In this document: positions 2,850-52,013 of the stretch, in pieces
Position numbering within the stretch: position 1 is the stretch's first letter
How the letters are laid out: every line of letters begins with the position of its first letter
From: an uncultured bacterium
Lineage (GTDB): Bacteria; Omnitrophota; Gorgyraeia; Zapsychrales; Aceulaceae
Direction: 5' to 3'
Assembly: GCA_937930175.1 (NCBI GenBank)
Contig: CALGLP010000006.1
Span: 1,749-65,748, forward strand
DNA: 64,000 nucleotides
Position numbers and translations under genes: made by a program
The notes under the pieces: generated by a model
What the model was told of the DNA's origin: nothing
What the model saw: the letters and a program-made list of their open reading frames with translations, nothing else
The model's database searches: none

Positions 2850-4929
2850 TCTCTCCGCAACTTCCATTCAGTATCTTAAAGGTGTTGGGCCTAAGCGCAA
2901 AGAAACCTTTGAACGTTTGGGCGTTACAACGGTCGAAGACCTTCTTTATTTCTTTCCCAGGCGTTATGAGGACCGCACGAAAATGACGCCTTTGTCCCAG
3001 CTTAAAGTCGGTGAATGGCAAATCGTAACGGGAAAAATCTTAAACCACAGCGGCCGCCAAAGTTGGTATACAAAAAAACATGTTTATGAAGTGGAGTTAG
3101 GGGATGAGACTTCGCGTATTTTTTGTGTGTGGTTTAACCGTCCGTATCTTGATCGTTATTTTAAGGCAGGCCAACAGCTTGTTGTTTATGGCAAGGTGGA
3201 TTTGTATAAGGACCGTTTTCAGCTCAATTCCCCAGATTATGAAATAATTACCGACGATGAAGAGGAGCAATCTTTAAGCTTAGGGCGTATTGTTCCGGTC
3301 TATCCAGCTACGCGTGGGATCAGCCAAAGGTATTTGCGTAAGACAATGAACGCTTGTTTGGAAAAATATGCATCATCCCTGGAAGATATTTTGCCTTATG
3401 ATCTTCGCAAGAAATATAAGCTTTATAATCTTGTTAAAAGTCTTGGTCAAATTCATTTTCCGGAAAATTTTAATGCGCAAGAGGCGGCTTACAAGCGTGT
3501 TTCATTTGAAGAATTCTTTTTGTTTCAGATCTCTGTCTTTTTGAGGCGCTTGAGCATTGTGACCAAAAAAGGGATTGCGCATCAGATCGATGAAGGTTTT
3601 TACAAGAAATTTATTGGGCTTTTTCCCTTTGAATTGACCTCGGCTCAGATAAAGGTGATTAAGGAAATTGCAGGCAATTTAAGTGCTCCATCACCCATGC
3701 ATCGGCTTTTGCAAGGGGATGTGGGTTCAGGAAAAACATTGGTTGCTTTTTTTGGATGTCTAGCCGCTGTTGACAATGGGTATCAAGCTGCGTTGATGGC
3801 GCCAACTGAAATCCTTGCGCGTCAGCATTTTCAGAATTTAACGAAAATTCTTGAGGGTTCTGTTTTTAAAGATGTCTCGGTTAAGCTTTTGACTAATGAG
3901 CTTGATCCTAAAGATCGCGTAGGTATTGTTGAAGATACAAAGCAAGGCAAGGTGGATATCCTGATTGGTACCCATGCCTTGATTCAAAATGAGGTCTATT
4001 TTAAGAATTTAAGCTTTGCGGTCATTGATGAACAGCATAAATTTGGTGTGCGCCAGCGAGCGCTTTTATCCGCCAAGGGAAGGAATCCGGATATCTTGGT
4101 TATGACAGCAACGCCGATTCCGCGGACCTTGTGCCTCACTCTTTATGGTGATTTAGATGTTTCCACGATCAACGAGATTCCTCCTGGTCGAGGAACCGTG
4201 AGTACGTTTCTTTTTCAAAATGAAAACGCAGGGCAAGCGTATCGCATGGTTGCCGAGGCTGTCAAACGTGGCGAACAGGCGTATATTATTTATCCGATTA
4301 TCGACGACTCTGAGAAGCTTGACTTAAAATCCGCCCAGCAGATGTTCAAGGAGCTTCAGGCGCTTGTCTTTAAAGAATACAAGCTTGGGCTTTTGCATGG
4401 CCAGATGAAAAAACAGCAGGCACAAGTGGTCATGAAAAAGTTTATTGAAAAAGAAATTGATATTTTGGTCGCAACGACTATCCTAGAGGTAGGCGTGGAT
4501 GTCCCCAACGCAACGATGATGGTCATTGAGCATGCGGATCGTTTTGGCCTTTCGACCCTTCATCAGCTGCGTGGACGTATTGGCCGCGGGGCAAAGGATG
4601 CCAAGTGCTTGCTCGTTGCCGAGGCCGCAACCCTGGAGGCCCAGGCGCGCATGGATGCGATTTTATCCACGAATGATGGTTTTGTGATCGCGCAAAAAGA
4701 TTTGATGATCCGAGGGCCTGGGGAATTCTTTGGCCGTCATCAGCATGGGCTTAATGAACTTAAAGTGGCTAATCCGCAGACACAGCTTGATGTTTTGGAG
4801 CAAGCCCGCGAAGAAGCTATGCATATTGTCAAGGATGACCCTCGTCTTGAAAAGAAGGCATCGGTAACGATTAAGCAGGTTATTTTGAAACGTTATCCAG
4901 CCTATTTGGCGAATATTTTGTCAGGATGA
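2821..4929 (+). CDS. recG: ATP-dependent DNA helicase RecG
   Basis: 702 aa. N-terminal wedge/OB region, Walker A GSGKT, DEQH box, helicase C motifs (QLRGRIGRG). Confidence 0.9.
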   Translation: MSRLIRRMHNLSATSIQYLKGVGPKRKETFERLGVTTVEDLLYFFPRRYEDRTKMTPLSQLKVGEWQIVTGKILNHSGRQSWYTKKHVYEVELGDETSRIFCVWFNRPYLDRYFKAGQQLVVYGKVDLYKDRFQLNSPDYEIITDDEEEQSLSLGRIVPVYPATRGISQRYLRKTMNACLEKYASSLEDILPYDLRKKYKLYNLVKSLGQIHFPENFNAQEAAYKRVSFEEFFLFQISVFLRRLSIVTKKGIAHQIDEGFYKKFIGLFPFELTSAQIKVIKEIAGNLSAPSPMHRLLQGDVGSGKTLVAFFGCLAAVDNGYQAALMAPTEILARQHFQNLTKILEGSVFKDVSVKLLTNELDPKDRVGIVEDTKQGKVDILIGTHALIQNEVYFKNLSFAVIDEQHKFGVRQRALLSAKGRNPDILVMTATPIPRTLCLTLYGDLDVSTINEIPPGRGTVSTFLFQNENAGQAYRMVAEAVKRGEQAYIIYPIIDDSEKLDLKSAQQMFKELQALVFKEYKLGLLHGQMKKQQAQVVMKKFIEKEIDILVATTILEVGVDVPNATMMVIEHADRFGLSTLHQLRGRIGRGAKDAKCLLVAEAATLEAQARMDAILSTNDGFVIAQKDLMIRGPGEFFGRHQHGLNELKVANPQTQLDVLEQAREEAMHIVKDDPRLEKKASVTIKQVILKRYPAYLANILSG

Positions 4930-5100
4930 AAAGAAGGTTTAAAGGGGTAGAGGACTAAAGGATTTTAGGAAAGTCAAAAGCAAAAGAATCAAGAATTAAA
5001 ATATATGTTATGTAAAATCGGTATGTTTCGACTTTTTATTTTAGTTCTTTTTGATGTCCCTTAAACCCTTTGATCCTTTAATTCTTTAACCCTATAGTTA
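4930..5100. repeat. Intergenic block with inverted TTTAAAGGGG / CCCTTTAA-type arms (solo palindromic element, CCTTTAA family)
   Basis: ggtttaaaggggtagagg ... cccttaaaccctttgatcctttaattctttaaccc. Same motif family at 6590-6650, 10490-10530 and in the cassette-4 flanks. Confidence 0.3.
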
Positions 5101-5102
5101 CT

Positions 5103-6651: not shown

Positions 6652-6852
6652 ATGCCATTACCAAAACGACAACATTCAAGACAGCGTGGACGCAAGCGTC
6701 GAACGCATTGGAAAATTACGCTACCGTCCTTAGGGCTTTGCAGCCATTGCGGCAAACAGGTTTTACCTCATCGTGTTTGCCCATTTTGCGGTCACTACAA
6801 GGATAAGCAGGTTGTTGAGATCAAGATCAAAGAAAAGAAAAAGACAAAGTAG
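6652..6852 (+). CDS. rpmF: 50S ribosomal protein L32
   Basis: MPLPKRQHSRQRGRKRR N-terminus and CxxC...CxxC zinc ribbon. Lies between yceD and plsX. Confidence 0.85.
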   Translation: MPLPKRQHSRQRGRKRRTHWKITLPSLGLCSHCGKQVLPHRVCPFCGHYKDKQVVEIKIKEKKKTK

Positions 6853-6950
6853 TATCTCGTATGTAGTATTTTGTATTTAGCAAGTCAAGTGATTTCGTTG
6901 TTCACCAAATACTGTATGCTAACGACTAAATACTTCTGGAGGTCGTTGCC
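6853..6950. repeat. Intergenic palindromic element (GTATTTAG/CTAAATAC family)
   Basis: gtatttagcaagtc ... gacTAAATAC inverted arms between rpmF and plsX. Same motif family as the repeats flanking four-helix-bundle cassette 2. Confidence 0.35.
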
Positions 6951-7952
6951 ATGAATATTATTGTTGATGCGATGGGCGGAGATCATGCGCCCAAAGAAAT
7001 TGTTCAAGGCGTTGTTGAGGCTGTTAAGGCCTTTGATGTTTGCGTGACCTTGATTGGCATTGAGCCGCAGGTGCGCCAAGAGCTCGCCAAATATGAGTAC
7101 CCTAACGATCGTATTGAGCTGATTCATGCGGATGAAACCATTGACATGCATGATGTGGCAACAAGTTCGATTCGTAAAAAGAAAAACTCCTCGATTTCCG
7201 TTGGCATTAATCTCCTTAAAGATTCAAAAAAATATCATGCCTTTATCAGCGCTGGTAATACCGGCGCTGTGGTGTGTGCCTCGACGTTTTTCTTAGGCAT
7301 GCTTCCTGGCGTTGAGCGTCCAGCCATCGGCTTGGCGATCCCCACGTTAAAAAATTTTGCATTTCTTATCGATGTTGGCGCCAATACGGACCCCAAGCCT
7401 GAACATCTTTTGCAATCCGCTATCATGGCCAAGGTGTATGCGCAAAAAGTTATGAATATCAATGATCCGCGCATTGGATTGCTTAATATCGGTGCTGAAG
7501 AAACCAAGGGAACGGACTTTATCAAAGAGACCCACCGTCTTTTTCTAGACCGCCTTTCTAATTTTGCCGGCAATATCGAGGCCAATGAAATCTTTTCTGG
7601 TCGCTGTGATTGTATTATTTGCGATGGGTATGTGGGCAATGTCGTGATCAAGATCTCGGAAAGCTTGATGGAGTCAACCCTGGCGCTTGTCCGTCGAGAG
7701 GTAAAGAAGAGCCCTGTCGCGATGCTAGGAGCCCTTTTGATGAAGTCGTGCATGAAAGATATCAAGAAACACGCGGATTATAGTGAATATGGCGGCGCCC
7801 CGCTTTTAGGCGTCAATGGCCTTGTGATGATTAGCCATGGCCGCTCCAACGCCAAAGCGATTAAAAATGCGATCCGTGCCACGATTCGAGAGATTGAAAA
7901 CAATATGATTGATCATGTGATCAAAGAGGTTACGAACAATGAAGCACGTTGA
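6951..7952 (+). CDS. plsX: Phosphate acyltransferase PlsX
   Basis: 333 aa, full-length PlsX-like sequence. Canonical position before fabH. Confidence 0.9.
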   Translation: MNIIVDAMGGDHAPKEIVQGVVEAVKAFDVCVTLIGIEPQVRQELAKYEYPNDRIELIHADETIDMHDVATSSIRKKKNSSISVGINLLKDSKKYHAFISAGNTGAVVCASTFFLGMLPGVERPAIGLAIPTLKNFAFLIDVGANTDPKPEHLLQSAIMAKVYAQKVMNINDPRIGLLNIGAEETKGTDFIKETHRLFLDRLSNFAGNIEANEIFSGRCDCIICDGYVGNVVIKISESLMESTLALVRREVKKSPVAMLGALLMKSCMKDIKKHADYSEYGGAPLLGVNGLVMISHGRSNAKAIKNAIRATIREIENNMIDHVIKEVTNNEAR

Positions 7953-8916
7953 GATCATGAGTGTGGGCCATTATGTTCCTTCGAAAAGGCTGACCAATGC
8001 CGATTTAGAGAAAATGGTGGATACCTCCGACGAGTGGATCATTTCCCGCACGGGGATCAAAGAGCGTCGCATTGCTGGGGAGCACGAGAAAACAAGTCAT
8101 TTGGCTATTGAGGCCGCGCGTCAAGCTCTTCATAATGCCAAGCTTTCTCCTTTAAAAGTCGAACTTATCGTTGTTGCCACAACGTCGCCTGATAGCAGCT
8201 TTCCATCTGTGGCTTGTCTTGTTCAAAAAGCGTTGGGCATCAAGAATGCCGTGGCCTTTGATGTTTCGGCGGCTTGCGCTGGATTTGTCTACGCATTATC
8301 AACTGCGCATCAGTTTTTGTTAGCGGGCAGTTACAAAAATGCCCTGGTGGTCGCAGCCGACAGGCTCACCACGATGATCGATTGGCAGGATCGCGGGACC
8401 TGTGTCTTGTTTGGAGATGGGGCCGGGGCTTGTGTGATCGAAAAGTCGTCAAGAAACGGTATTCTTTCCGAGCATTTAGAAAGTTTTGGTGAATATGGCG
8501 AGATGATGCAGGTCATTACTCCGGAGACGCGACATCCATCGAGACCTAAGCAGGCCGAGGGCGTTTTGCCTTATATTCGGATGCAAGGCCCGGAGCTTTT
8601 TAAGATCGCGGTCAATTCCATGGCGGATTGCGTTGAGAAGGCCCTTCAAAAAGCCAAGATTGAAATTGCGGATGTGGCGTGTGTTGTTCCGCATCAGGCC
8701 AATGATCGTATTATTAGCGCAGTTGCCAAAAAACTCAATATCCCTAAGGAAAAGTTTTTTATCAATATTGAGAAATACGGTAACATGTCGGCGGCTTCGG
8801 CTGCGGTTGCGTTTTATGAGGCTATCCAGGTCGAGCGTATCCGCAAAGGCGACTATGTTGTGATCGTTGCCTTTGGCGCAGGCTTGGTTTCAGGAGCAAT
8901 GGTCATTAAATGGTAA
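7939..8916 (+). CDS. fabH: 3-oxoacyl-ACP synthase III
   Basis: 325 aa. Active-site Cys context (AACAGF) and C-terminal His/Asn regions. Confidence 0.9.
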   Translation: MKHVEIMSVGHYVPSKRLTNADLEKMVDTSDEWIISRTGIKERRIAGEHEKTSHLAIEAARQALHNAKLSPLKVELIVVATTSPDSSFPSVACLVQKALGIKNAVAFDVSAACAGFVYALSTAHQFLLAGSYKNALVVAADRLTTMIDWQDRGTCVLFGDGAGACVIEKSSRNGILSEHLESFGEYGEMMQVITPETRHPSRPKQAEGVLPYIRMQGPELFKIAVNSMADCVEKALQKAKIEIADVACVVPHQANDRIISAVAKKLNIPKEKFFINIEKYGNMSAASAAVAFYEAIQVERIRKGDYVVIVAFGAGLVSGAMVIKW

Positions 8917-9345
8917 TTATTAGCGTATGGCGTTTAGCGGATAGTCGATAGAAAAAGATATGCAAACAAAAAGTTTTAAAGATTTGATTGTCTGGCAGAA
9001 ATCATTTTTGCTGGTAAAAGAAACTTATTGTTTAGCTAAAGATTTTCCAAGAGAAGAGATCTATAGTTTATCCCAGCAAATGAAGCGAGCGGCTGTATCT
9101 ATCCCTTCTAATATTGCAGAAGGTTATGGCCGACGACATCAAAAAGAATACAAGCAATCATTATCTGTTGCGTATGGTTCATTGTGTGAGCTGGAAACAC
9201 AGTATTTATTATCCGTTGAGCTAAATTTCTTAAAGAAGTCTGACGTCTTTGATGGTTTGCTTAAAGAAGTCGGCAGTATGCTTTATCGAATGCTGAACCC
9301 TAAAATTTAACAAAAACTAACCGCTATACGCTATTTGCTTTCCGC
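8917..9345 (+). mobile_element. IR-flanked four-helix-bundle gene cassette 1 (rRNA-IVS-like element) inserted between fabH and fabD
   Basis: Inverted arms tagcgtatggcg (8921-8932) and cgctatacgcta (9322-9333) bracket a 116 aa ORF. Confidence 0.45.
8960..9310 (+). CDS. Four-helix-bundle protein (23S rRNA intervening sequence protein family)
   Basis: Hallmark sequence WQKSFLLVKETY...KRAAVSIPSNIAEGYGR...GSLCELETQ. 116 aa. Confidence 0.8.
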   Translation: MQTKSFKDLIVWQKSFLLVKETYCLAKDFPREEIYSLSQQMKRAAVSIPSNIAEGYGRRHQKEYKQSLSVAYGSLCELETQYLLSVELNFLKKSDVFDGLLKEVGSMLYRMLNPKI

Positions 9346-10279
9346 TATGAAAGATATTGCATTAATTTTTCCCGGTCAAGGCGCCCAAAAGGTGGGCATG
9401 GGAAAAGAATTTTATGATTCTTGTTCCAAGGCCAAGGCTGTCTTTGATGCGGCCCAGGCGATTTTAGGCAATGATTTCTTGAATGTTGTTTTTAATGGCC
9501 CGCAGGAAAAACTCACGCTCACATCCTATTCTCAGCCCGCCATTGTTGCGTTTTCCATCGCGGCTTTAGAAGCCTTTAAAAAAAGTGAAAAATTTAAAGA
9601 TGTGAACGTTAAGTTTGCGGCTGGCTTGAGCCTTGGCGAATACTCAGCGCTGATTGCCTGCGGCGGGTTGCCTGTGGAAGAAGGCATTCGCTTAGTTCAG
9701 AAGCGCGGCAGCTTTATGGAAGAGGCTTGTAAGCTTAACAATGGCAAGATGGCCGCCATTATTGGTTTTGGTAAAGAGCGGCTTAAAGAAATTTGTGCTC
9801 AAACGGGCGCGCAAGTCGCTAATTTTAATTCTTCCGAGCAGATTGTGATTAGTGGCCATGCGGATAAGGTCGAAGCCGCGGTTGCCCTGATCGAAAAAGA
9901 AGGTGCCAAGAACATTGTGATGCTTGAGGTGGCGGGTGCCTTTCATTCCAGCTTGATGAGCTCTGCTGCGGACAAATTTAAAGCGACGCTTGATTCTTTT
10001 ACCATCCATCCTCTAAGCATTCCTTTGGTTTCCAATGTCAGCGCTAGCGCTGTCTTGGATCCTCAGGTCATCCGAGAAAATCTGCCCAAGCAAATCGTTT
10101 CTTCAGTCCTCTGGGAAGATTCGATTCGTTTTATGGCGCTCCAGGGCGTAAAAACCTTTATCGAGATTGGGCCAGGACGCGTGCTCAAAGGCCTTATGCG
10201 AAAGATTGATCCAGGCCTCAAGGTTTTTAACATTGAGAAGCCGGAAGACATTGTCGCGCTGGCAGTCGATAGTATCTAG
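9335..10279 (+). CDS. fabD: Malonyl-CoA:ACP transacylase
   Basis: GQGAQ motif and GLSLGEYSAL active-site Ser motif. 314 aa. Confidence 0.9.
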   Translation: MLSAMKDIALIFPGQGAQKVGMGKEFYDSCSKAKAVFDAAQAILGNDFLNVVFNGPQEKLTLTSYSQPAIVAFSIAALEAFKKSEKFKDVNVKFAAGLSLGEYSALIACGGLPVEEGIRLVQKRGSFMEEACKLNNGKMAAIIGFGKERLKEICAQTGAQVANFNSSEQIVISGHADKVEAAVALIEKEGAKNIVMLEVAGAFHSSLMSSAADKFKATLDSFTIHPLSIPLVSNVSASAVLDPQVIRENLPKQIVSSVLWEDSIRFMALQGVKTFIEIGPGRVLKGLMRKIDPGLKVFNIEKPEDIVALAVDSI

Positions 10280-10282
10280 TCG

Positions 10283-10360
10283 TTAGTATTTAGTGAACAA
10301 CAAAAGCGTTTTAGTTGCTAAATACTAGATACTATTCACTAAATACTAGATACTAAGGAA
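10283..10360. repeat. Intergenic palindromic element (agtatttagtgaa / ttcactaaatact inverted arms)
   Basis: Arms separated by about 40 nt, plus ctagatactagatac motifs shared with the cassette-2 flanks. Confidence 0.4.
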
Positions 10361-14731: not shown

Positions 14732-16906
14732 ATGAGAATAAACTTATTTTCAATATTAGCATTTATAAGCTTTCTAATTAGCGCAACGGTTTTTTTCATT
14801 GTTTTGCAGAACCGGAAATCTAACCTGCATAATCAATGGCTACGGTTTATCTTTGCCGCAGCATTTTGGGAATTCAGTGCGTTTCAAATCGGAATATCAC
14901 AAACAGGAGATAGAGCTTTATTTTGGTGGAAAATAGCTCATGTTGGCATTATTTTCCTTGCGATATTTTTGTTCCACGTTGTTTATGAGTTTTGTGGACT
15001 AAAGAAGAAAAGAATTTTATTCTTTATTTATGCGCAAGGGTTTTTCTTTTTATTTTTTAATTTTTTTACAAATTTTTTCTTATCTGGAACGAGATACGTT
15101 TTTTCATCTTTTTATTATGGAACACTAGGTCCCTTCTATCATCCTTTTATGATTATTTGGCTCCTTATTGTTTTTTATAGTCATATTGAGCTATTTATGT
15201 CTTATGAAAAGTTTCAAGGGGTAAGAAGAACACAGCTAAAATATTTTATCGCTTCAAATTTGGTAGGATTTTCAGGAGGATTGACCAATTTCCTTCCAGC
15301 CTATGGCATAGATATTTTTCCTTTTTATGGGTGCTTTAGCACTGCCTTGTACTGCGCCATATTCACATATGCTATTTTAAAGCATAGGATCATGGATATC
15401 CGCTTAGCCATAACTAGAACTGGCATCTTTATTCTTGTTTATTCTTTTGTTCTTGGCATTCCCTTTGCCATGGCTTTTGGTTTACAAAAGTATTTAACAG
15501 CTTTTTTTGGTCCGACCTGGTGGATTGTCCCATTAATTACGTCAACACTTTTAGGCACTGCAGGTCCTTTTATTTATTTCTTTATCCAACGCAAGGCAGA
15601 AGACACCCTTTTGCGAGATCAAAAGCGATATCAAACAACCCTTAAGCAAGCCTCAGCCGGTATGACGCGCATTAAAGATTTGAAGAAGCTCTTGAATATG
15701 ATTGTTTATATCTTGGCGAGGACAGTCAATATTACGCATGCGTTTCTTTATTTATATGATGCAAAAAGCCGTGATTATGCCTTAGAGGCAACCCGTGGAG
15801 AAAGGGCTTCCAAGGAAAGTTATTATTTAAACAAAAAATCTTCGTTGATAAGCTATTTAGAGAGAGTCAGGGCGCCGATTGTTTTTGAAGAGATCAGGCA
15901 GCAGAGTCAAGATTATGATAGTGATGAGCTCAAAGATGTTCAAAATGAGTTGATTATGTTAGGTGCCGCAGTTGCGGTCCCTATTTTTACAGAAAAAAGG
16001 CTTTTGGCTATAGGGATTTTGGGTAAGAAAAAGTCAGGAGCAATGTATACTCAAGATGATTTAATTGTTTTTTCTATTCTTGCCAACCAAGTCGCTTTAG
16101 CCATTGAAAATGCCCAGTTTTATGAAGAGTCGAAACAGACCCAGGAGCAGCTTTTTCAGGCAGAGAAAATGGCCACCATCGGTACCATGGCTGATGGGCT
16201 TTCGCATCAGATCAACAATCGCTTGCATACGCTTGGGTTTATTGCTGGAGACGCGCTTGACACGATCAAATTAAGTAAAGAGGTGCAGAATCCTGATAAA
16301 TTTCAGGAAATTTTAGCGGAGATCTCCAAGGCGCTTGTCAAGATTCAGGATAACGTGCGTCAGGGCGGGGAGATTGTCCAAGGTCTTTTGCGCTATACCC
16401 GTAAAGGCGAGGAAGGCTTTGGAGATGTGGTCCTTGACAAATTGGTGGATGAAGTGATCGAGATGGCACAGTTTAAGATCAAAAAAGAATATGTGTCGAT
16501 CGTTAAAGATTATGCCCAGGATCAGCCCTTGATCCGCGGAAATTTTACACAGCTGCAAGAAGTCCTTTTTAACATCATTGATAATGCCTATGACGCGATC
16601 ATGCAAAAGAAGTCTGAGATGGGTGACGACCATTTTATGGGCAAGATCAAGATCTCGACGCGTCAGACAGAAAAGTTTTTAGAGGTTAGCCTTTTAGACA
16701 ATGGCATGGGGGTTAAGGATGAGGACCAGATCAAGCTCTTTACGCCATTTTTTACAACAAAGTTTTTCAACAAAAAGGGCACAGGCCTTGGGCTTTATGT
16801 GATCAAGAAAATAGTTGAGGATAATCATCAAGGCGAGGTCTTTATCTCCTCAGAGTACAAAGTTGGCACACTGTTTGTGATACGCTTGCCGATGGGAAAG
16901 CAGTGA
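14732..16906 (+). CDS. Sensor histidine kinase with polytopic N-terminal membrane domain and GAF domain
   Basis: About 9 TM helices, then a GAF-like region. H-box (GLSHQINNRLHT) and HATPase_c N/G1/G2 boxes (NAYDAI, DNGMGV, GTGLGL). Confidence 0.8.
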   Translation: MRINLFSILAFISFLISATVFFIVLQNRKSNLHNQWLRFIFAAAFWEFSAFQIGISQTGDRALFWWKIAHVGIIFLAIFLFHVVYEFCGLKKKRILFFIYAQGFFFLFFNFFTNFFLSGTRYVFSSFYYGTLGPFYHPFMIIWLLIVFYSHIELFMSYEKFQGVRRTQLKYFIASNLVGFSGGLTNFLPAYGIDIFPFYGCFSTALYCAIFTYAILKHRIMDIRLAITRTGIFILVYSFVLGIPFAMAFGLQKYLTAFFGPTWWIVPLITSTLLGTAGPFIYFFIQRKAEDTLLRDQKRYQTTLKQASAGMTRIKDLKKLLNMIVYILARTVNITHAFLYLYDAKSRDYALEATRGERASKESYYLNKKSSLISYLERVRAPIVFEEIRQQSQDYDSDELKDVQNELIMLGAAVAVPIFTEKRLLAIGILGKKKSGAMYTQDDLIVFSILANQVALAIENAQFYEESKQTQEQLFQAEKMATIGTMADGLSHQINNRLHTLGFIAGDALDTIKLSKEVQNPDKFQEILAEISKALVKIQDNVRQGGEIVQGLLRYTRKGEEGFGDVVLDKLVDEVIEMAQFKIKKEYVSIVKDYAQDQPLIRGNFTQLQEVLFNIIDNAYDAIMQKKSEMGDDHFMGKIKISTRQTEKFLEVSLLDNGMGVKDEDQIKLFTPFFTTKFFNKKGTGLGLYVIKKIVEDNHQGEVFISSEYKVGTLFVIRLPMGKQ

Positions 16907-17415
16907 AGAGTGAATAGTGAAAAGTATCTAGCAGTGGTTGAATAAGGGTTAGAGGAATAGTTGATTAAAGGGGTAAAAAGCAAATTGTGAATGGCGATGA
17001 AGATTCAGCAAAAGACGTAAAAATTAGAAGCTTCAGGAATCTAAATATTTGGAATCTTGGTAAGGAAATTGTTGTTGAGACTTACAAAATTACTAGAAAT
17101 TTTCCCAAAGAAGAGGCTTTTGGCCTTACATCGCAGATGCGTAGGGCAGCTGTTTCCATTCCTTCGAATGTTGCAGAAGGGTTTAATCGTTATCATAATA
17201 AGGAGTACAAACAGTTTCTTTTTCTTGCTCTGGGTTCCTGCGCTGAGCTTGAAACGCAGGCTGAAATATCCCTTGAATTAGATTATATTGATATTGCTAC
17301 CAAAGAAAGATTGCTTGAGAAGATCGTATATGAGTCAAAGATGATTCGAAATCTTATTAAAAAGTTGTAAGTTCCTTTATTTTTACTAGATGCTCTTCAC
17401 TAGATACTAGATACA
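16907..17415 (+). mobile_element. IR-flanked four-helix-bundle gene cassette 2
   Basis: Upstream gtgaagagtgaatagtgaaaagtatctag and downstream ctagatgctcttcactagatactagatac are mutually inverted (gtgaagag/ctcttcac, tatctag/ctagata). Confidence 0.45.
16987..17370 (+). CDS. Four-helix-bundle protein (23S rRNA IVS protein family)
   Basis: RRAAVSIPSNVAEGFNR...GSCAELETQ. 127 aa. Confidence 0.8.
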   Translation: MNGDEDSAKDVKIRSFRNLNIWNLGKEIVVETYKITRNFPKEEAFGLTSQMRRAAVSIPSNVAEGFNRYHNKEYKQFLFLALGSCAELETQAEISLELDYIDIATKERLLEKIVYESKMIRNLIKKL

Positions 17416-17435
17416 ATTGTAAAGGAGATTAACTA

Positions 17436-17804: not shown

Positions 17805-17809
17805 GTGAA

Positions 17810-17940
17810 GGGTATCTTGTATTTAGTATCTAGCCAGCAAGGCAGAGAAAAGCGATTATTAAGAATTTGATATTATTCGGCAGATACTCGATGTGTTTTG
17901 TCTTTTACTAAATACTATTCACTAGATACTAGATACGTTT
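17810..17940. repeat. Intergenic palindromic element (gtatttagtatctag ... ctagatactagatac)
   Basis: Inverted arms flank about 100 nt between the receiver and HD-GYP genes. Same motif family as the cassette-2 repeats. Confidence 0.4.
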
Positions 17941-17949
17941 ATTTTTCTT

Positions 17950-19125
17950 ATGCTTAACTACAAAAAAGAACTTGAAAAAGCAAGCCGATTGATGATCCGG
18001 ATCCACGATCCGGGTATTTTGATCCGTTTGATTATCCGCATTATTGTCCGCAAGGTTGATGTCAAGCACGCGGGGGTTCTTCTTTTTGATGCTGCCCGCG
18101 ACTGTTACGTTCTTACGATCTCCGGCGGAGAGGCGGGCACGAGAATTCCTCAGGGTTTCGCGAAATTTGTTCCAGAGAATCCTTTGATTAGATTTTTCAC
18201 GGATAAAGAATATAAACTGATCGTTAAGAAGCGTGGGATCCTGACCTTAGAGAGCTTAAATCAAATGATTTGGGGGGAAAACATTTTTCCCCAGGCGCAA
18301 GAGCGAAAGGCCTTTTTGCAGAAGATTGCCGAGCAAATGGAGATGTTTAATGTCTCTGTCTGTATCCCAGCTTATTTTCGTGATCATTTAAGCGCTTTGC
18401 TTTTGTTGGGTGAGAAAGCCAATGCTAAGGTTTATCATCAGGATGAATTTGATTTTTTAGCCGCGCTATCCTCCGACGTGGCCATGGCGATTCAAAACGC
18501 GCAATTGATCGAGGATTTGCGCAAAGAGGTTGAAAAGAATAAAACCCTTTTTATCAACACAACGCTTTCGCTTGCCTCAGCTATCGAGGCCAAGGATCGC
18601 TATACGCGAGGCCATACCGAGCGGGTCACAAAGTTTGCGCTGGCGATCGCAGACGAACTTAATAGCAAGGGCATCATCCATCTACCCAAGAAATTCTTAA
18701 ACGATCTCTATATTGCGAGCCTTTTGCACGATATTGGAAAGATCGGCGTTCCTGAGCAAATTTTATCAAAAGAAACAAGGCTTACCGACGAAGAATTTAT
18801 CCAGATCAAGAAGCATCCTGAACGTGGTGCGGAGATCTTAAAGACGTTGCCAGAATTTGAAGAGTCGCTTAAAGGTGTCAAATATCATCACGAGCGCTAT
18901 GATGGCAAGGGATACCCTGAAGGGCTTAAAGGGGAAGAGATTCCTTTGATTGCTGCCATTGTCGCGGTTGCGGATACCTATGATGCTATGACCTCAGATC
19001 GAACATATCGCAAGGCTCTTTCGCGAGAAGCCGCGATTGCTGAGATTGACAAGAATGTTGGTATTCAATTTAATCCTGTTATTGCCCAGGCGTTTTTAGA
19101 AGTGTTAAAAAGAGAAGGAATATAG
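17950..19125 (+). CDS. HD-GYP domain c-di-GMP phosphodiesterase with N-terminal GAF-like domain
   Basis: HDIGKIGVP and HHERYDGKGYPEGL motifs. 391 aa. Confidence 0.85.
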   Translation: MLNYKKELEKASRLMIRIHDPGILIRLIIRIIVRKVDVKHAGVLLFDAARDCYVLTISGGEAGTRIPQGFAKFVPENPLIRFFTDKEYKLIVKKRGILTLESLNQMIWGENIFPQAQERKAFLQKIAEQMEMFNVSVCIPAYFRDHLSALLLLGEKANAKVYHQDEFDFLAALSSDVAMAIQNAQLIEDLRKEVEKNKTLFINTTLSLASAIEAKDRYTRGHTERVTKFALAIADELNSKGIIHLPKKFLNDLYIASLLHDIGKIGVPEQILSKETRLTDEEFIQIKKHPERGAEILKTLPEFEESLKGVKYHHERYDGKGYPEGLKGEEIPLIAAIVAVADTYDAMTSDRTYRKALSREAAIAEIDKNVGIQFNPVIAQAFLEVLKREGI

Positions 19126-19156
19126 TTTTTAGTGTCTTGGCACGATGTGCCAGATA

Positions 19157-20770
19157 CTAAATGCTGCTCTTTGTGGGTAGTTCAATGATAAATTTTGTTC
19201 CCTTTCCAGGTGTACTTTCTACCAAAATTCTTCCATTGTGATCTTCAATAATCCGCTGTGTAATGGAAAGTCCTAGGCCCGTGCCATGATCTTTTTTGGT
19301 ATAAAAGGGATCAAAGATGTGCTTGAGGTCTTTAGGCAAGATGCCGATACCTGTGTCTTCAACGATGATGGTGATCTTTTTTTCATGAGGTATTATCCCG
19401 ACAGATAGTTCTCCACCGGTGTTCATTGCGTCAATCGCGTTGAGGAGGATATTGAGAAGCGCCTGGCGAAGGCGGTTTAAGTCAGCGTTTATTAGAAAGT
19501 TGCTGTTGGGGGCGTATTTCCTAATGACCTTAATATTGTGCTTTAAGAAGTTGCTGTTAAGAAAATCAACTGTGTTGTCGACCAGTGAACAGATATCAAG
19601 GTTCTTTAAGTTTAAGGGGGATGGCTTGGCAAACTCAAGAAGTTCGTGCACAAGTTGGTCAATGCGATCAACCTCGCGTCCTACAATTTTAGAGAAATTT
19701 TTAAGAAACTCTTTATCGTCAAGTTTTTCTGGAAGGTATTCAGTGAACGTCTTGACAGCCGTCAGGGGATTGCGGATTTCGTGCGCAATGCCTCCTGCAA
19801 GGATGCCAATCGATTTTAGCTTTTCAGCGCGCAGGAGCTCTTCTTTAAGAAATTCGTTTTCATGCACAATTTCTTCATGAGTGCCGTGGAAAAAGAGTTT
19901 ATCGATGAAATTTTGTATTTTGTTTTTAAGTGGATAGAATATTACAGAAATAATCGCACAGGAAGAAACGGATGCAAACATCGTTTGATAGCCAGTTAGT
20001 TTCTGAAATATTTTCTCAAACACGATAACAAAGACTAGATAAATGATAGAAATTAAAGCTGCCAAAAGTGAGTAAGCAATGCTGCGCCTAAAGAAAATAT
20101 TTATTTCCATTAATTTGTGCTTGATGATTGCGTACATAAAGGTCAAGACAAAAATTGTTGCTGGTATGAAGCCAATAGGCCTTATGTTAATTGTATAATT
20201 TGGAAGAAAATCAAGTCCGGATAGGGTAAAAATTCCATAACCAATCAGGATGTATTTTATTTGAGATCGCTTTAAATCTGGTATTCTTTTATTTCTTGAT
20301 GCGATTACTAGAAAACTAAATGCAAATATGGCAATAAAGAGAAACATGATAAGAAAGTATGGATGCAGGATCCCTGCCCTAGGGTAGGGGCCCCACGGAT
20401 AGTTGTGCATGTTTGAAATGATTAAGTTACTTGTTAGGATGAGCGTGCACACAAAGATGCTATATGTATATATAACTATTAAATATTTTCTTAGATTTAA
20501 AAGATTTAGATATAGATAAACGAAATGAAAGATGAAGGCTGGAATTAAGGCGATGCCACAATATGAAATCCGTATCCAGAAGGGGATTTCTTCTCCCATA
20601 GACCCCTTGCATAACATAAGAAGGTAATATGACAACCAGGTGGTAACGGAAAGACACAAAAGAAAGAAGATTTGATTAATTCTTGACCAGAGCCCTTTGA
20701 GTAAAACAAAGATTCCAGAATTGAGAATTAAGGTTGCGCATATAAGTTGTGATATTAAGAGAATTTTCAT
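19157..20770 (-). CDS. Sensor histidine kinase with polytopic N-terminal membrane domain
   Basis: N-terminal multi-TM region. H-box GIAHEIRNPL. HATPase motifs NAIDAM, DTGIGI, GTGLGL. Confidence 0.8.
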   Translation of the reverse strand: MKILLISQLICATLILNSGIFVLLKGLWSRINQIFFLLCLSVTTWLSYYLLMLCKGSMGEEIPFWIRISYCGIALIPAFIFHFVYLYLNLLNLRKYLIVIYTYSIFVCTLILTSNLIISNMHNYPWGPYPRAGILHPYFLIMFLFIAIFAFSFLVIASRNKRIPDLKRSQIKYILIGYGIFTLSGLDFLPNYTINIRPIGFIPATIFVLTFMYAIIKHKLMEINIFFRRSIAYSLLAALISIIYLVFVIVFEKIFQKLTGYQTMFASVSSCAIISVIFYPLKNKIQNFIDKLFFHGTHEEIVHENEFLKEELLRAEKLKSIGILAGGIAHEIRNPLTAVKTFTEYLPEKLDDKEFLKNFSKIVGREVDRIDQLVHELLEFAKPSPLNLKNLDICSLVDNTVDFLNSNFLKHNIKVIRKYAPNSNFLINADLNRLRQALLNILLNAIDAMNTGGELSVGIIPHEKKITIIVEDTGIGILPKDLKHIFDPFYTKKDHGTGLGLSITQRIIEDHNGRILVESTPGKGTKFIIELPTKSSI

Positions 20771-24964: not shown

Positions 24965-25070
24965 TCAAGGTAGGCGTTTACCTGGCTGGTAGCTGTTAGT
25001 GAAATAGATTAAGGTGAAGTTCGTTTTGGCCAAGACATCATTTGATATTTTCGATAACAAGGAGGGCCAG

Positions 25071-28000
25071 ATGCAAAAGAGAAGAATTTTTATCGCGTTG
25101 GTTGTTTTGTCTTTGATCTTTAGTTCACCTAAGCTTTGGGCTGCCGCGAGTCAAGAGGGACCAAAATCTCAACAGCAAGTTTTCTCAACAGAAGATAAGT
25201 CTCAGCCCGCAGAGCAAGGATTTTCTCTCAAAAAAGAACAGTTATCGACGAGCGATGCGAAGTCTTCTCCTGCTGCTCTTTATGAGGACAGAGCTTTTCA
25301 ATCCGTTGAAAGGCTTGACGTTGATCCTGCCACAGGAACCGCGACTGTTGGGATTCCTATTTCTGTTCCATTAGGGCGCGCTGGCATCCAGCCATCGATT
25401 GCCTTGGCGTATAATTCTAGTTTTTCTAATGGGCTTATGGGTATGGGCTGGAGTCTTGAATTTGGCAAAATAAGCCGATCAACTAAATATGGCATGCCCA
25501 CCTATACTAATACCGATTGTTTTGTTTTGACACATTCTGGATCCCGACAAGAGTTGGTTGACGTAAGCGGCAATGCCACGCTGTTTCGCCCTGAGATTGA
25601 TGATGCCTTTATGAAGATAGAATTTGTCAACGGTTCGTATTGGCGGGTGACGGATAAAAAAGGTATTGGTTATTATTTTGGTCAGACCGCAGCGTCGCAG
25701 ATCGTTGATCCAAGCAACAGTGCGAATGTTTTTGAGTGGTATTTAGACAAGGTTGAAGATATGTATGGCAATGACATGAGCTTAACGTACATCAAGGATC
25801 AAAACCAGATTTATCCCTATCAGATTCACTATACGGGAAATACTCCGGGAAATTTATTACCTTTCGCAACCATTGAATTTGAGACGGAAAGCAGGCCAGA
25901 CACGATGTTTTCTTACTTGACGCGTTTTTTGATTAGAACAGAGAAGCGTATATCAGCTGTGAAAGTTTTTGCTCAAGGCGTTCTTCAGCGAAAATATCAA
26001 CTCGTTTATTCGCAGAGTCCTATGACGCAGCGATCGCTTCTTTCACAGGTTATTCAATACGGCGCTGATGGCGTGAGCAGTTTGCCAGCAACGACGTTTA
26101 CTTACCAGCAAGGGGATAAAGGATTTCAGGTTGCCTCCGGATGGAATATTCCGGCAAATGCTAAATTTGCTGAATACCAGCAGGGTAATCGTTATGCGGA
26201 TTTGGGCGTGCGCATTGCGGATGTCAACTCCGACGGCTATCCAGACCTTCTTCGCTATCATCAGTATAGCAATGGAACGACAATCCGAGAGACATTTTTG
26301 CATAATAAGAACCAAGGATGGGAGGCCTCATCTGCAGAGTGGAAGTTTCCAGCGAGCTTGGCTAATTTCTTATTAACCGCTCCAGAGATCGATAAGGCTT
26401 TTGGACTTTGTCTTGCGGATGTTAACGGCGATGGGTGGGTTGATCTTTTTCGCCACTTTCAGGATCATCCGGCGAATGCAGGGGGAGTGATTACCAATCA
26501 AGCTTTTATTAATAACCATGTTAATGGATGGGATCTTGATGCGAGCTGGCAACTTCCTGAGGAGGGTGTTTTGCCGATCAACTGGGTTGTTTCCCAGTCG
26601 GGTTATTTTTATCATGAATATACGGGCAACATCATCGACGATGTTAATGGTGATGGCTTTGCGGATTATGTGAAATCAAAAAAAGAGGGATTTGGACCTC
26701 AAGCGCATATGACGTTTATCAACAAGAAGCCTTTAGCAGGTGGATGGACTTATAATAGTGCGTGGAATACGCAAGATTCGATTTACACTGATTTTGCTCA
26801 TGGCGCTATTCTTGCTGATCTTAATGGTGATAATTTGAAAGATATCATGTATTCAAAAGAGGGAATAATCAAAGTTTTTATTAATAACGGAGCAACGTGG
26901 TATGAAGACGACAGTTCTCCGTGGAAAAATGAGTTTGGGTATACAAATTTCAGCGATGGATCAACGCAGTGTGCGGATATTAATGGAGATGGATTAGTGG
27001 ATTTGATTGTCTCCAGCGACGCGTCCGAGAAAGCCTTGCTTAACAATGGTCAAGGGTGGGTCTTAGATTATGCTTGGGTTGTTCCTGGTAATTTAAAAAG
27101 TAATGGCACTAAGCTTCTTGATGCCGATGCCGATGGCATGTTGGATGTTGTGAAACATTTTAATGGAACGACTCCGGAAGTTTACTTGAGCAGGGGCAAG
27201 GTCCCGGATCTTTTAGTTGAAATGAACAATGGCATGGGTGGGGCAAGAGTGATCAGCTATGATTCTGCCTGTCATTACAATAATGATTTTTTTCCTTTTG
27301 CCGCGCAGGTTGTTCAATCGTTAACCCTTAGCAGCGGAGATGGGGATTCGTATACAACCTATTATACGTATGGCCATGGGTTGTGGAGTGCGAGCAAGCG
27401 AGAGTCGCGTGGTTTTGGTTATGTGAAAGTCATGGAAGCAGAGGGTAATTACAGCGAGACCTATATGCATCAGGATGACATTTATAAGGGAAAGATTGAT
27501 CGTCAGGAACATTATGATGGGAGCGGAAATCTTTTTTCCAAGGCCGTTTATCAGTGGAATCATCAACAGCTTGATCCGAGTGTTTTTTTTGTTTATCTTG
27601 AGCAGGTGGATCAATTTGTTTATGATGGAAATACGACGGGCGTGCGAACGCAGGAAAAATATTTTTATGAAGAGTCGCCACAATATGGCAATGCTACAAA
27701 GACCGTTCAGCTGGGCAGGGTGGATCTCACAACCGGAGAGGACATGGGTGTTGATAGCCGAACGGTTGAGGCAGCCTATCATAACAATGTAGAAAGTGGT
27801 CATTGGTTTATTGGGATTCCTAAACAAGTTATTGTTAAGGATGATGGGGGTACACAAGTTCGCAAGAGTTGGTTTTATTATGATGGCAGCAATGATATTA
27901 ATGCCTTGCCGGTTAAAGGGGCACTGACAAAAAAGCAGTTTTGGGCTGGCAATGATCCTGGCGCGGTTGACCCTGTTACGGAATACACCTACGACCCTTA

Positions 28001-42166: not shown

Positions 42167-42255
42167 GGAGAGGTGGCTGAGTGGTTGAAAGCGGCGGTCT
42201 TGAAAACCGTTATTCCGAGCGATCGGGATCTAGAGTTCAAATCTCTACCTCTCCG
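42167..42255 (+). tRNA. tRNA-Ser (anticodon TGA), long variable arm, no encoded CCA
   Basis: GGAGAGG acceptor stem pairs with CCTCTCC. Anticodon loop CTTGAAA. Long extra arm. T-loop GTTCAAATC. Confidence 0.85.
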
Positions 42256-49947: not shown

Positions 49948-50496
49948 ATGCTTGATGAAAGAGAGTTCGAGCTCGTGAACATCGTTGGCGCAGAAATTGT
50001 CTCCAGTCAGCGTGATCTATCCCGCAATATGAACCTTTCCTTGGGTCAGACAAACATGCTTTTGCGTCGGCTTATCACCAAGGGCTATATTCGCATCAGC
50101 AAGCTCGATAAGCGTAGAGTAAAATACCTTCTCACTCCTCAAGGTATTGCTGAAAAAATGGACAAATCCATCAAATATACCTTAAGAACGATTAATTCCA
50201 TTGGTCTTATTAAAGAGCGGTTTAAAGATATTTTGAAAGAGATTTACGCCAAGGGTGAGCGAAAATTTTTTATTCTCGGTGAATCTGATTTAGCGTCCTT
50301 GGTTGAGATGGCTGCGCACGAGCTTTCCTTTATGGATTGTTCGTTTACGCGTATTCAAGACGTTTCCGCTGACTCTGCGACTGGGACGGTTCTTGTCTGC
50401 CAAGAGGATGTTTTTGACAAAGTCGTGGCTAACAATAAGATCGATTTGATTCATGAGTTGGCCAAGGATTCGGCGTTGCTAAAGGGAAAAGGATGA
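49948..50496 (+). CDS. Winged-helix (MarR-like) transcriptional regulator
   Basis: N-terminal wHTH (SQRDLSRNMNLSLGQTNMLLRRLITKGYI). 182 aa. Confidence 0.5.
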   Translation: MLDEREFELVNIVGAEIVSSQRDLSRNMNLSLGQTNMLLRRLITKGYIRISKLDKRRVKYLLTPQGIAEKMDKSIKYTLRTINSIGLIKERFKDILKEIYAKGERKFFILGESDLASLVEMAAHELSFMDCSFTRIQDVSADSATGTVLVCQEDVFDKVVANNKIDLIHELAKDSALLKGKG

Positions 50497-50954
50497 AAAT
50501 TAAAATCGATTTTGAATATAAGTCATTTGTGGACGACATCAAAAAATGCGTCCGTGCTTCACAATACGAAGCGTTGAAGGCGGTTAACAAGGAGCTTATT
50601 TCTCTTTATTGGGACATTGGACGGCAGATTGCCGATAAGCAGAAAAAGCTTGGTTGGGGCAAGGCAGTGGTTGAGAATCTGGCGAGTGATTTGCAGAAAG
50701 AGTTTCCAGGGATCAAAGGGTTTTCGACTCAAAATTTGTGGTATATGCGGCAGTTTTATAGCGAATATCAAGGGAGCCTAATTCTCCAACCAATGGTTGG
50801 AGAAATCAGTTGGGCAAAACATTTAGTTATTATGAGCCAATGCAAGAAAGTTGAGGAGCGTGCTTTTTACATCAATATGACTAAAAAGTTTGGCTGGACC
50901 AAGGATGTCCTCGTCCATCAGATTGAGAATCAGTCAGTGGAATTTGCGATTTAA
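50493..50954 (+). CDS. YhcG/DUF1016 N-terminal-domain-only protein (truncated paralogue)
   Basis: LISLYWDIGRQIADKQKKLGWGKAVVENLASDLQKEFPGIKGFSTQNLWYMRQFY matches the N-domain of the following full-length gene. No PDDEXK nuclease part. Confidence 0.6.
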   Translation: MKIKIDFEYKSFVDDIKKCVRASQYEALKAVNKELISLYWDIGRQIADKQKKLGWGKAVVENLASDLQKEFPGIKGFSTQNLWYMRQFYSEYQGSLILQPMVGEISWAKHLVIMSQCKKVEERAFYINMTKKFGWTKDVLVHQIENQSVEFAI

Positions 50955-50990
50955 ATCAGGAATCTATCACTTGACAGCAAGGGGATAAGC

Positions 50991-52013
50991 GTGAGTAAGG
51001 TTATTGATCAGTCTTTTAAGGAAGTTGTAAGTCTTATTCGCGGTGCACGGCAAAGGGCTTATAAAACGGTTAATACCGTTTTGATAGATCTATATTGGCA
51101 AATTGGTGAGTATGTTTCGCGAAAGGTTGATGCGCAGGAATGGGGCCGTGCTGTTGTTCAACAGTTGGCCGAGCATTTAGCACAGGCAGAACAGGATTTA
51201 AAGGGATTTTCTGCTTCGAATATATGGCGTATGAAGCAATTTTTTGAGATGTATAAGGACGCCCAGAAACTCGCAACACTGTTGCGAGAATTATCTTGGT
51301 CAGCGCATCTGCATATTATGTCCAAGTGCAAATCTTTAGAGGAGCGAGAGTTCTATATGCAGGTTGCCGTTAAGGAACGCTGGTCTGTCCGGGATTTGTC
51401 TAGAAATATTGATAGTTGTTTTTACGAAAGGATGCGGCTTTCTCCAGCAAAGCTCTCTACAGCGTTACAAGAACTGCATCCTGCTGCGGGACAGGCGTTC
51501 AAAGATGCATATGTTTTCGATTTTTTAAATTTACCTGAGAAGCATTCAGAGAAAGAACTTCAAAAGGGGCTCATCGCTGATCTCAAGAAGTTCCTTGTGG
51601 AGCTCGGATCTGATTTTTGTTTTGTTGGTGAGGAGTATCGTTTGCAGGTGGGTGTGCAGGATTTTTTTGTGGATCTTTTGTTCTTTCATCGGGGGCTATC
51701 GTGCCTGGTTGCTTTTGAATTGAAAGTTGATCTTTTCAAGCCAGATTATTTGGGCCAGCTTTCTTTTTATCTGGAAGCGTTGGATCGAGATGTGCGTAAG
51801 CCGTATGAAAAACCAAGTGTTGGGATACTTCTATGTAAGTCTAAAGACAGCGAAGTGGTTGAGTATGCTTTAAGTCGCACGCTTTCGCCTGCATTGATCG
51901 CGGAATATCACACAAAACTTCCTAATAAGATATTACTGCAGAAGAAGATGGAAGAGTTTTATGCATTGGAGTCAGAGCGAACGATTGCAAATGATGCAAT
52001 AGCAGGATCTTGA
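50991..52013 (+). CDS. YhcG-family PDDEXK nuclease-like protein (DUF1016)
   Basis: N-domain (LIDLYWQIGEYVS...FSASNIWRMKQFF) plus C-terminal PDDEXK-like core (D...ELK: LVAFELKVD). Confidence 0.7.
   Translation: MSKVIDQSFKEVVSLIRGARQRAYKTVNTVLIDLYWQIGEYVSRKVDAQEWGRAVVQQLAEHLAQAEQDLKGFSASNIWRMKQFFEMYKDAQKLATLLRELSWSAHLHIMSKCKSLEEREFYMQVAVKERWSVRDLSRNIDSCFYERMRLSPAKLSTALQELHPAAGQAFKDAYVFDFLNLPEKHSEKELQKGLIADLKKFLVELGSDFCFVGEEYRLQVGVQDFFVDLLFFHRGLSCLVAFELKVDLFKPDYLGQLSFYLEALDRDVRKPYEKPSVGILLCKSKDSEVVEYALSRTLSPALIAEYHTKLPNKILLQKKMEEFYALESERTIANDAIAGS

Follow-up and report, generated by a model that had tools for sequence, protein, structure and literature searches.

A four-helix-bundle gene between inverted heptamer arrays interrupts the fabH-fabD junction of an uncultured Omnitrophota bacterium

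To our knowledge, no function has been assigned since the early 1990s to the open reading frame (ORF) found in intervening sequences (IVSs) of 23S rRNA, and we likewise know of no accepted role for heptamer tandem repeats, which in many bacteria are over-represented more than any other long simple repeat. Here we analyze a 64,000-nt stretch of DNA from an uncultured Omnitrophota bacterium (the window; contig CALGLP010000006.1 of assembly GCA_937930175.1), in which a small gene for a four-helix-bundle (4HB) protein, bracketed by inverted heptamer arrays, lies between fabH and fabD; we call this element cassette 1. Among the closest described systems, the Coxiella IVS is 428 nt long, is closed by a 28-bp stem of terminal inverted repeats and contains an S23p ORF; two or three tandem GACAGAT heptamers, in a copy number that varies between strains, lie 5′ of this ORF, and RNase III makes its 5′ cut at the first repeat (PMC4990558). 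The distribution of S23p IVSs is sporadic, suggesting horizontal spread, and the related Xanthomonas campestris protein XCC0516 has been described as a homopentamer (PMC4990558); its PDB entry, 2GSC, contains 5 chains. X. campestris also has 186 arrays of the heptamer GGGAATC, usually of four units, which lie near or overlap an upstream stop codon and are transcribed; 70 of the 186 form convergent pairs, at groES-groEL, atpA-atpG, atpD-atpC, gltB-gltD and holC-pepA and inside purL (Rehm et al., PMC4692102). Array #15, with four GGGAATC units, is located 6 nt past accB and overlaps the start of XCC0516 (PMC4692102 Table A), so that this 4HB gene is preceded by a heptamer array in the same build as described below.

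Cassette 1 consists of 430 nt (8917-9346) and extends from just past the fabH stop codon to the fabD ATG. The gene order here, all on the forward strand, is recG, rsmD, coaD, yceD, rpmF, plsX, fabH, the 116-amino-acid (aa) ORF, fabD, fabZ and fabF. The upstream host gene, fabH (7939-8916; PF08545/PF08541), ends with a TAA at 8914-8916, which 4 nt separate from the first arm, and the downstream host gene, fabD (9347-10279), begins with an ATG at 9347. The ORF between them (8960-9310) is intact, and its product is by sequence a full-length member of the PF05635/TIGR02436 4HB family: it matched PF05635 with E=3.5e-34 and 117.7 bits (cut-off 33.8), residues 7-109 aligning with profile positions 1-105 of 106, and TIGR02436 with E=1.9e-31 and 108.5 bits (cut-off 24). 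With 18,906 clusters at 50% identity matching the protein, the family is a very large one, and the sole relative of solved structure by sequence was XCC0516 (PDB 2GSC; E=4.8e-19, residues 8-95). The arms (8921-8951 and 9316-9347) occupy the entire spacer on either side of the ORF, the first lying in the segment that precedes the start codon (8917-8959) and the second in the segment that reaches the fabD ATG (9311-9346). Read in sevens, the 5′ arm consists of about four degenerate heptamers (TAGCGTA, TGGCGTT, TAGCGGA, TAGTCGA and a final TAG) and the 3′ arm of complementary ones (CTAACCG, CTATACG, CTATTTG, CTTTCCG and a final CTA). Each arm matched itself at 0.64 when shifted by 7 nt and at no more than 0.50 at other lags, and a repeat finder paired 8921-8945 with 9316-9339 (24 nt, 79%), 8921-8937 with 9317-9333 (17 nt, 88%) and 8935-8951 with 9331-9347 (17 nt, 76%). 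A weak purine-rich pre-start, GAAAAAGAT, lies between the 5′ arm and the start of the ORF, and fabD follows the cassette without a Shine-Dalgarno sequence. Simple promoter and terminator scans found no such site within the cassette, neither Rfam nor PADLOC gave a match to it, and a tRNA gene (42167-42255) was the only Rfam match over the window, with no rRNA. The cassette encodes the 4HB protein only and no transposase. We consider it probable that 8917-9346 represents an IVS-type cassette with neither promoter nor transposase, composed of a PF05635 4HB gene and inverted arrays of a subfamily-specific heptamer, residing in an mRNA operon. An earlier sequence-only reading had proposed that a 116-aa 4HB gene with short inverted arms splits fabH from fabD in the manner of a 23S rRNA IVS. 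The profile scores at 8960-9310 bear out the gene, the arms are present and longer than it quoted, and the likeness to the IVS build extends to the tandem heptamers 5′ of the ORF (comparison, PMC4990558).

That reading had also taken the gene to be an insertion, and comparison with related genomes agrees. Scanning a single genome for each species yielded 80 loci orthologous to fabH, which all belong to Omnitrophota-type metagenome-assembled genomes (MAGs; some titled Planctomycetales or Planctomycetia), and the closest relatives of the window are Candidatus Omnitrophota MAGs, ‘Ca. Aceula’ among them. The distance from fabH to fabD was -6 to 205 bp in 72 of the 74 related loci holding both genes; the two exceptions are an alignment beginning at residue 134 and a locus with a fabD-like match 3.5 kb off. 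The nearest relative has a FabH of 91% identity, and there the end of fabH and the beginning of fabD share the sequence ATGGTAG, in which the stop and start codons overlap. Neither tblastn nor a profile search of ORFs (approximately 650 kb) detected a 4HB gene at the related fabH loci, and the cassette is missing from the fabH-fabD junction of all species examined. Because the two genes are adjacent or overlapping in these relatives, without a 4HB gene, cassette 1 is new in the lineage of the window; it is a lineage-specific insertion, in sense orientation, precisely between the fabH stop and the fabD start. Contigs from other samples that encode identical 4HB, FabD or cupin proteins all carry the cassettes, at 100% nucleotide identity except for one mismatch in one contig.

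Complementary flanks with a period of 7 are a general feature of 4HB genes, beyond the window. We retrieved 80 metagenomic loci with genes for proteins related to those of the window and compared the 120 nt upstream with the 120 nt downstream for 78 4HB genes and for 159 control genes from the same loci. The median z of the flank duplex was -2.34 for the 4HB genes and -0.11 for the controls (Mann-Whitney p=1.7e-14), with z < -3 for 38% of the former versus 3% of the latter. Mean best-window self-match at lag 7 was 0.59 upstream and 0.53 downstream of 4HB genes (controls, 0.43 and 0.46), and lag 7 was the only periodic signal in the 4HB flanks, other lags remaining at approximately 0.38. Arrays typically contain 3-5 units (median, 4.3 upstream and 3.6 downstream), the units are locus-specific (ACTAGGG, TCTGGGG, CTAGTCG, GTGAAGC, AGGTGTC and others), and host junctions include groES-groEL (locus L144) and pabB-like-pabC-like (L101). 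In 25 of the 78 cases, against about 3 expected, pairing was stronger with the cognate downstream arm than with any of 25 non-cognate arms. Furthermore, seven cassettes whose proteins are 60-67% identical to the 116-aa protein all have (T/C/G)AGCG(T/G)(A/T) units at a spacing of 7 or 14, in unrelated contexts. Similarity of arm 5-mers rises with protein identity, reaching 0.197 at 65-80% identity versus a baseline of approximately 0.07, and none of 300 permutations reached the observed correlation. Arms and gene co-descend into new gene contexts, and this pattern suggests a constraint on the arm sequence itself. We also considered, from L144, where the groES stop GGCTAG matches the repeat unit, that arms are copied from the target; this idea was rejected because the arm family follows the gene subfamily in unrelated contexts. 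The same comparisons bear on the possibility that nothing was inserted, the 4HB gene being an ancestral small gene lost elsewhere and its low-complexity flanks being complementary by chance. Purine-rich and pyrimidine-rich flanks do pair by composition, and shuffled arms of cassette 3 (see below) already reach -85 kcal/mol. However, the fabH and fabD genes abut or overlap in nearly all relatives, the nearest included, cognate arms beat non-cognate ones, and an arm family travels with its gene subfamily to other contexts, which together make this explanation extremely improbable.

The sequence-only reading had counted four such cassettes in the window, each with an inverted-repeat family of its own. 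All four are real, and a profile search finds exactly four; their arm families are not fully private, as the TAGTATC units of cassette 2 recur in modules that lack a gene. Cassette 2 (16902-17416, forward strand) separates a histidine kinase (HK) gene from a response regulator (RR) gene and carries a 127-aa 4HB ORF at 16987-17370 between GTGAAGA/GTGAATA/GTGAAAA/GTATCTA and CTCTTCACTAGATACTAGATAC. Cassette 3 (52040-52745, forward strand) has a 124-aa 4HB ORF at 52209-52583 and long arms, with GACGTGG and AAAGTCC units upstream and approximately 18 GGACTTT units downstream. In cassette 4 (53118-53640, forward strand), AAGGTTA/AAGGTTG/AAGGGTG/AAGGATT and AACCTTC/AAACTTT/AACCTTG/ACCCTTT/AACCTTT flank a 4HB ORF (53179-53550) that is interrupted by an in-frame TAG at codon 53. 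From its sequence this gene is probably a pseudogene; the stop is present in every population sample, so the copy is decaying or needs read-through. The period-7 pattern is plainer in cassettes 2-4 than in cassette 1. Stable folding of the flank pairs, which the sequence-only reading had expected, was supported by duplex z values of -5.0, -4.5, -2.4 and -3.6 for cassettes 1-4, but did not hold throughout: the inverted repeat of cassette 2 is weak and its stem marginal, and its arms pair no better than non-cognate arms. Upstream of the cassette 3 ORF, an extra array of GACGTGG/GACGTGA units (52040-52125) has no complementary downstream partner and may be the remnant of an earlier or nested module. 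Just upstream of the same cassette (50493-52013) are two adjacent DUF1016/YhcG-type genes, a 153-aa N-terminal fragment and a 340-aa full-length copy.

What the arms might do in RNA was assessed by folding. For the cassette 1 arms the duplex energy is -29.0 kcal/mol, whereas shuffling of the arms gives -13.6 +/- 3.1 (z=-5.0), and in the minimum-free-energy (MFE) fold of the whole cassette an 11-bp helix (8921-8931 with 9323-9333) closes the structure. In the model that we favor, the cassette would be co-transcribed with plsX-fabH-fabD and would be tolerated through its heptamers: because TAG, TGA or TAA recurs every 7 nt, stop codons are present in all three frames on the 5′ side. Base-pairing between the arms would then make a loop of the cassette, with the fabH stop and the fabD AUG side by side at the foot of a single helix in the transcript, and/or the paired arms would provide a site for a double-strand-specific RNase. 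Cleavage by RNase III at the arms of cassette 1 is plausible by analogy. The sequence-only reading had gone further, treating the stems as RNase III substrates that could uncouple the polycistronic mRNA; with a short stem in cassette 1 and a marginal one in cassette 2, support for this is weaker than it implied. A stricter version would make the element a pure RNA passenger, whose arms matter only as a double-stranded stem, RNase III freeing the 4HB mRNA and parting the fabH and fabD messages. The excision by RNase III of IVSs with the same ORF family, cut on the 5′ side at the first heptamer (PMC4990558), and the transcription of the Xanthomonas arrays (PMC4692102) speak for it, as does the better pairing of the arms than of shuffled ones. 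In addition, arm mismatches within the Omnitrophota clade of the window are G·U rather than A·C by 38 to 16 (p=0.004). Outside the clade no such excess exists (36 versus 47), and the clade-specific one could come from strand-biased, sense-strand C-to-T mutation instead of selection. Heptamer motifs are moreover conserved within subfamilies, which a pure helix constraint would not require, the stems are short or imperfect, and after cleavage fabD would have no Shine-Dalgarno sequence and would no longer be coupled to fabH. We regard the passenger version as possible but rather doubtful.

At least five arm pairs without a gene are present at other operon junctions of the window. A heptamer/octamer inverted-repeat module lies between recG and rsmD (4930-5102; fold z=-3.7), and modules of the TAGTATY family lie between rpmF and plsX (6850-6950), fabD and fabZ (10264-10356; spacer fold z=-4.4) and RR and an HD gene (17805-17936; fold z=-3.9); these four are on the forward strand, with fold z values from -2.7 to -4.4. 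A minimal TAGTATY-type inverted pair, a remnant with no strand assigned, is located between the convergent HD gene and a second histidine kinase gene, HK2 (19123-19159), where the related loci L182 and L184 have a 4HB cassette. The sequence TAGTATYTAG has 23 matches against 5.0 +/- 2.1 expected, 18 of them at intergenic junctions or in the cassette 2 arms, and TAGTATY-type units also accompany the cassette 2 protein subfamily in L182. A gene-less TAGCGTA module, with the unit family of cassette 1, occurs in the relative L011, and relatives carry such modules at other junctions. Both the heptamer nature of the arms and the gene-less versions at neighboring junctions are new here and go beyond the sequence-only reading. 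The first TAGTATC units (10264-10279) supply the final fabD codons (V D S I) together with the TAG stop of that gene, and the TAG stop of rpmF (6850-6852) is part of the first array unit; since these stop codons lie within arrays, the modules can rewrite the 3′ ends of host genes. Spacers of L011, L013, L015 and L010 contain another dispersed element of approximately 60-80 nt (for example, L015:1059-1178 and L013:1103-1201), which recurs at several operon junctions of the Ca. Aceula relatives (…aaattcrcrcaggctgacttgacg…cgtaagtcaggyrctcattt…) and looks like a second family of intercistronic hairpins. Elsewhere in the window, 25014-32897 holds a gene of approximately 2,600 aa resembling an RHS/YD-repeat toxin.

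Using histidine-kinase orthologues, we fetched the syntenic block from L182, L184 and L183 and compared its junctions. At fabH-fabD, L182 and L183 are empty and L184 is not covered. At HK-RR, the window and L184 have an orthologous 4HB cassette (type X), with the same arms and 76% identical 4HB proteins; L182 has a different 4HB (type Y, 42% identical) with different arms, and L183 has a gene-less TAGTATT-type hairpin. At HD-HK2, L182 and L184 carry a 4HB cassette, L183 is empty and the window is empty save for the remnant pair. Between a second response regulator gene (RR2) and a cupin gene, only L182 has a 4HB cassette, which follows the stop codon and precedes the next gene's Shine-Dalgarno sequence, with no target duplication visible, and the window, L184 and L183 are empty. 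Finally, between genes for 547-aa and 96-aa proteins, L182 and L184 have a 4HB cassette and the window and L183 do not. Gain, loss or replacement of cassettes has occurred at five junctions within this one syntenic block. The proposal that these units form a family of small inverted-repeat-bounded modules is upheld by this variable presence and by the enriched flank complementarity over the 78 4HB genes.

Cassettes are also found inside genes. Five of the 78 lie wholly within long same-strand ORFs whose frame is open through both arms and gene: L127:1821-4754 (leucyl-tRNA synthetase, LeuRS), L128:1815-6347, L123:1-2610 and L108:324-1718 (methyltransferase/PglX-like) and L158:536-3646 (ORF not identified). 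The +2 frame of the 4HB gene has 0 stops in exactly these five and a median of 7 elsewhere; with this frame stop-free, the host protein must be translated through the cassette. The hosts in L123 and L128 are homologous (52% identical) and have the cassette at the same site, and such dual-coding inserts are therefore long-lived. The arms in L127 are (ACTGGGG)n, which we take to be complementary to the unit of STRR1 (Mazel et al. 1990). The LeuRS ORF in L127 has a second, outer pair of STRR1-like heptamer tracts (approximately 2570-2600 and 4190-4230), which bracket approximately 1.6 kb and are translated as GLGTGDWGLG and PSPQSPVPSPQTPQS. Two IMG/VR ‘viral’ contigs, L185 and L186, have 4HB cassettes inside PglX/BREX-like methyltransferase genes, near a GLA(Y/F)AGG…QW motif as in L108; the viral contigs held 20 4HB loci among 2.9 million. 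Interrupted operons and split-looking ORFs may stem from such modules, which matters for genome annotation.

These distributions can be set against a domesticated role, in which the heptamer hairpins would serve the host as mRNA stabilizers or as processing or translational-coupling elements, comparable to repetitive extragenic palindromes (REP) and bacterial interspersed mosaic elements (BIME), and the 4HB protein would be an RNA-binding regulator or chaperone rather than a selfish factor. Modules do lie 0-16 nt past stop codons in conserved operons of several phyla, and intragenic copies have been kept over long periods. The HK-RR 4HB protein is also under purifying selection, because it has kept 76% identity while the neighboring kinase is 68% identical. 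On the other hand, close relatives differ in the positions of the modules, and in the majority of species most junctions are empty; one copy in the window, in cassette 4, is probably a pseudogene; and the heptamer sequence changes from module to module within one genome. We consider a host-serving role unlikely.

The favored model of an IVS-type cassette further gives the arms the role of cis-acting ends, which the oligomeric 4HB protein itself would most plausibly recognize, and supposes that host functions would supply the catalysis of movement. Recognition by a 4HB oligomer would fit the subfamily-specific heptamers, the arrays of 3-5 units and the pentameric relative. Several observations weigh against this model. 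Binding of the heptamers by the 4HB protein is pure inference. No target-site duplication was found where filled and empty junctions were compared (fabH-fabD against L010-L015; RR2-cupin in L182 against L184, the window and L183), and the exact ends of the element are not definable, the nearest empty sites being from different species at too high a divergence. Neither ongoing movement nor a change in repeat number was seen in the population samples, which are 100% identical, and the annotated genes of the window include no recombinase, reverse transcriptase or transposase. The cassette 1 stem is short and imperfect (11 bp contiguous, or approximately 26 bp imperfect), and in the MFE fold the 14 nt of the 5′ arm that follow the closing helix pair within the ORF. 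Over the whole family, G·U mismatches in the arms are no more frequent than A·C ones (49 versus 50), and therefore selection on a sense-RNA helix is not general. Lastly, co-orientation with neighboring genes is marginal (approximately 80% versus a background of 74%, with crude gene calls).

Some of the same data can be read as those of a mobile element acting at the DNA level, with the heptamer arrays as terminal repeats bound by a pentameric 4HB protein (a synapsis or specificity factor), the gene-less pairs resembling transposable elements of the miniature inverted-repeat type (MITEs), and host enzymes cutting and joining. Such an element would account for arms that co-vary with the protein subfamily, for gene-less modules that share heptamers with a resident cassette (in Xanthomonas, the 186 arrays and the 4HB gene with GGGAATC), for gain, loss and replacement at junctions, for family-wide symmetry of G·U and A·C mismatches, and for arrays of 3-5 units beside the 5 chains of homopentameric 2GSC (PMC4990558). 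However, the junctions compared yielded no target-site duplication, the protein lacks a known catalytic domain, the helical repeat of double-stranded DNA is not 7 bp, and arm similarity fades below approximately 65% protein identity, as simple co-descent would give. A DNA-level mobile element is a possibility about which we remain skeptical. Finally, weak matches of the 116-aa protein (PF22296 bAvd, E=1e-4; NF033474, E=1.9e-6; PHROG 3206 ‘Avd’, E=3e-7) raised the question of whether it is the Avd protein of a diversity-generating retroelement (DGR). Its scores lie far under the cut-offs (PF22296, 23.2 versus 40 bits; NF033474, 28.1 versus 80 bits), neither a reverse transcriptase nor a pair of template and variable repeats is present in the window, and the neighbors are housekeeping genes; we rejected this reading, which has scarcely any likelihood.

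Drawn from the window, from 78 metagenomic loci and from the Coxiella IVS and Xanthomonas repeat table in the literature, these data show that the 4HB gene and the heptamer repeats make up a single module; its insertion sites are essential operons (fab, groESL, acc) and, occasionally, the interior of genes. We tentatively speculate, with more doubt than conviction, that PF05635 proteins are sequence-specific partners of heptamer arrays (STRR, GGGAATC and others), each subunit of a ring-shaped pentamer reading one heptamer of a 4-5-unit array. They would then define a new class of transposase-less elements, with autonomous cassettes and many gene-less arm pairs in rRNA helices, at operon junctions and, as dual-coding inserts, in ORFs, of which the 23S IVS would be the special case noticed first. 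Two old puzzles, the IVS ORF and the heptamer repeats, may thus have a common answer, and the cassettes bear on how polycistronic expression survives insertions. With XCC0516 and its four GGGAATC units, in a culturable organism and with a solved structure, the module is open to experiment.

Compared with known systems, cassette 1 is closest to the ORF-bearing 23S rRNA IVSs of Coxiella and Leptospira, with which it shares a PF05635 protein, a length of approximately 430 nt, a sense ORF and terminal inverted repeats; like the Coxiella IVS, it also has tandem heptamers directly 5′ of the ORF and a weak Shine-Dalgarno sequence. It differs in its host, a junction of a protein-coding operon rather than helix 9, 25 or 45 of 23S rRNA, and in its stem (11-26 bp and imperfect versus 28 bp). 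Unlike rRNA, the pieces of a cleaved protein operon cannot count on ribosome assembly to stay together, and excision of cassette 1 by RNase III is an analogy drawn from the IVSs. Avd, a small pentameric 4HB protein that binds both nucleic acid and a polymerase, is a remote homologue of the 116-aa protein, whose setting is unlike that of a DGR. MITEs, REP/BIME and Rickettsia palindromic elements (RPE) resemble the modules as small inverted repeats at intercistronic sites whose gene-less copies outnumber gene-bearing ones. RPE are reportedly inserted in-frame within ORFs and translated through, as some cassettes are. The modules differ from these elements in having arms that are tandem heptamer arrays and not unique terminal repeats; no target-site duplication was visible at the junctions compared, whose nearest empty sites come from different species. 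Unlike transposons and systems with REP-associated tyrosine transposases (RAYT), the ‘autonomous’ version encodes a 4HB protein without a known catalytic domain. A full-text literature search, with most subscription journals outside its reach, found no paper tying PF05635 genes to heptamer arrays beyond the Coxiella IVS. Studies of the Xanthomonas GGGAATC arrays and of the cyanobacterial short tandemly repeated repetitive (STRR) sequences treated these as G-quadruplex (G4) or simple-sequence-repeat features and tied them to no gene; unlike GGGAATC, the units of the window are not G-tract sequences, and G4 formation is therefore not the common denominator. The arrays described here resemble both in having a period of 7 and approximately four units, in beginning at or near the upstream stop codon, in forming inverted pairs at operon junctions and, as for GGGAATC, in occasional intragenic copies. 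Across the window we found a period of 7, approximately 3-5 units, starts near stop codons and convergent pairs, with degenerate arrays in cassette 1, whose AGCG cores recur at a spacing of 7 or 14.

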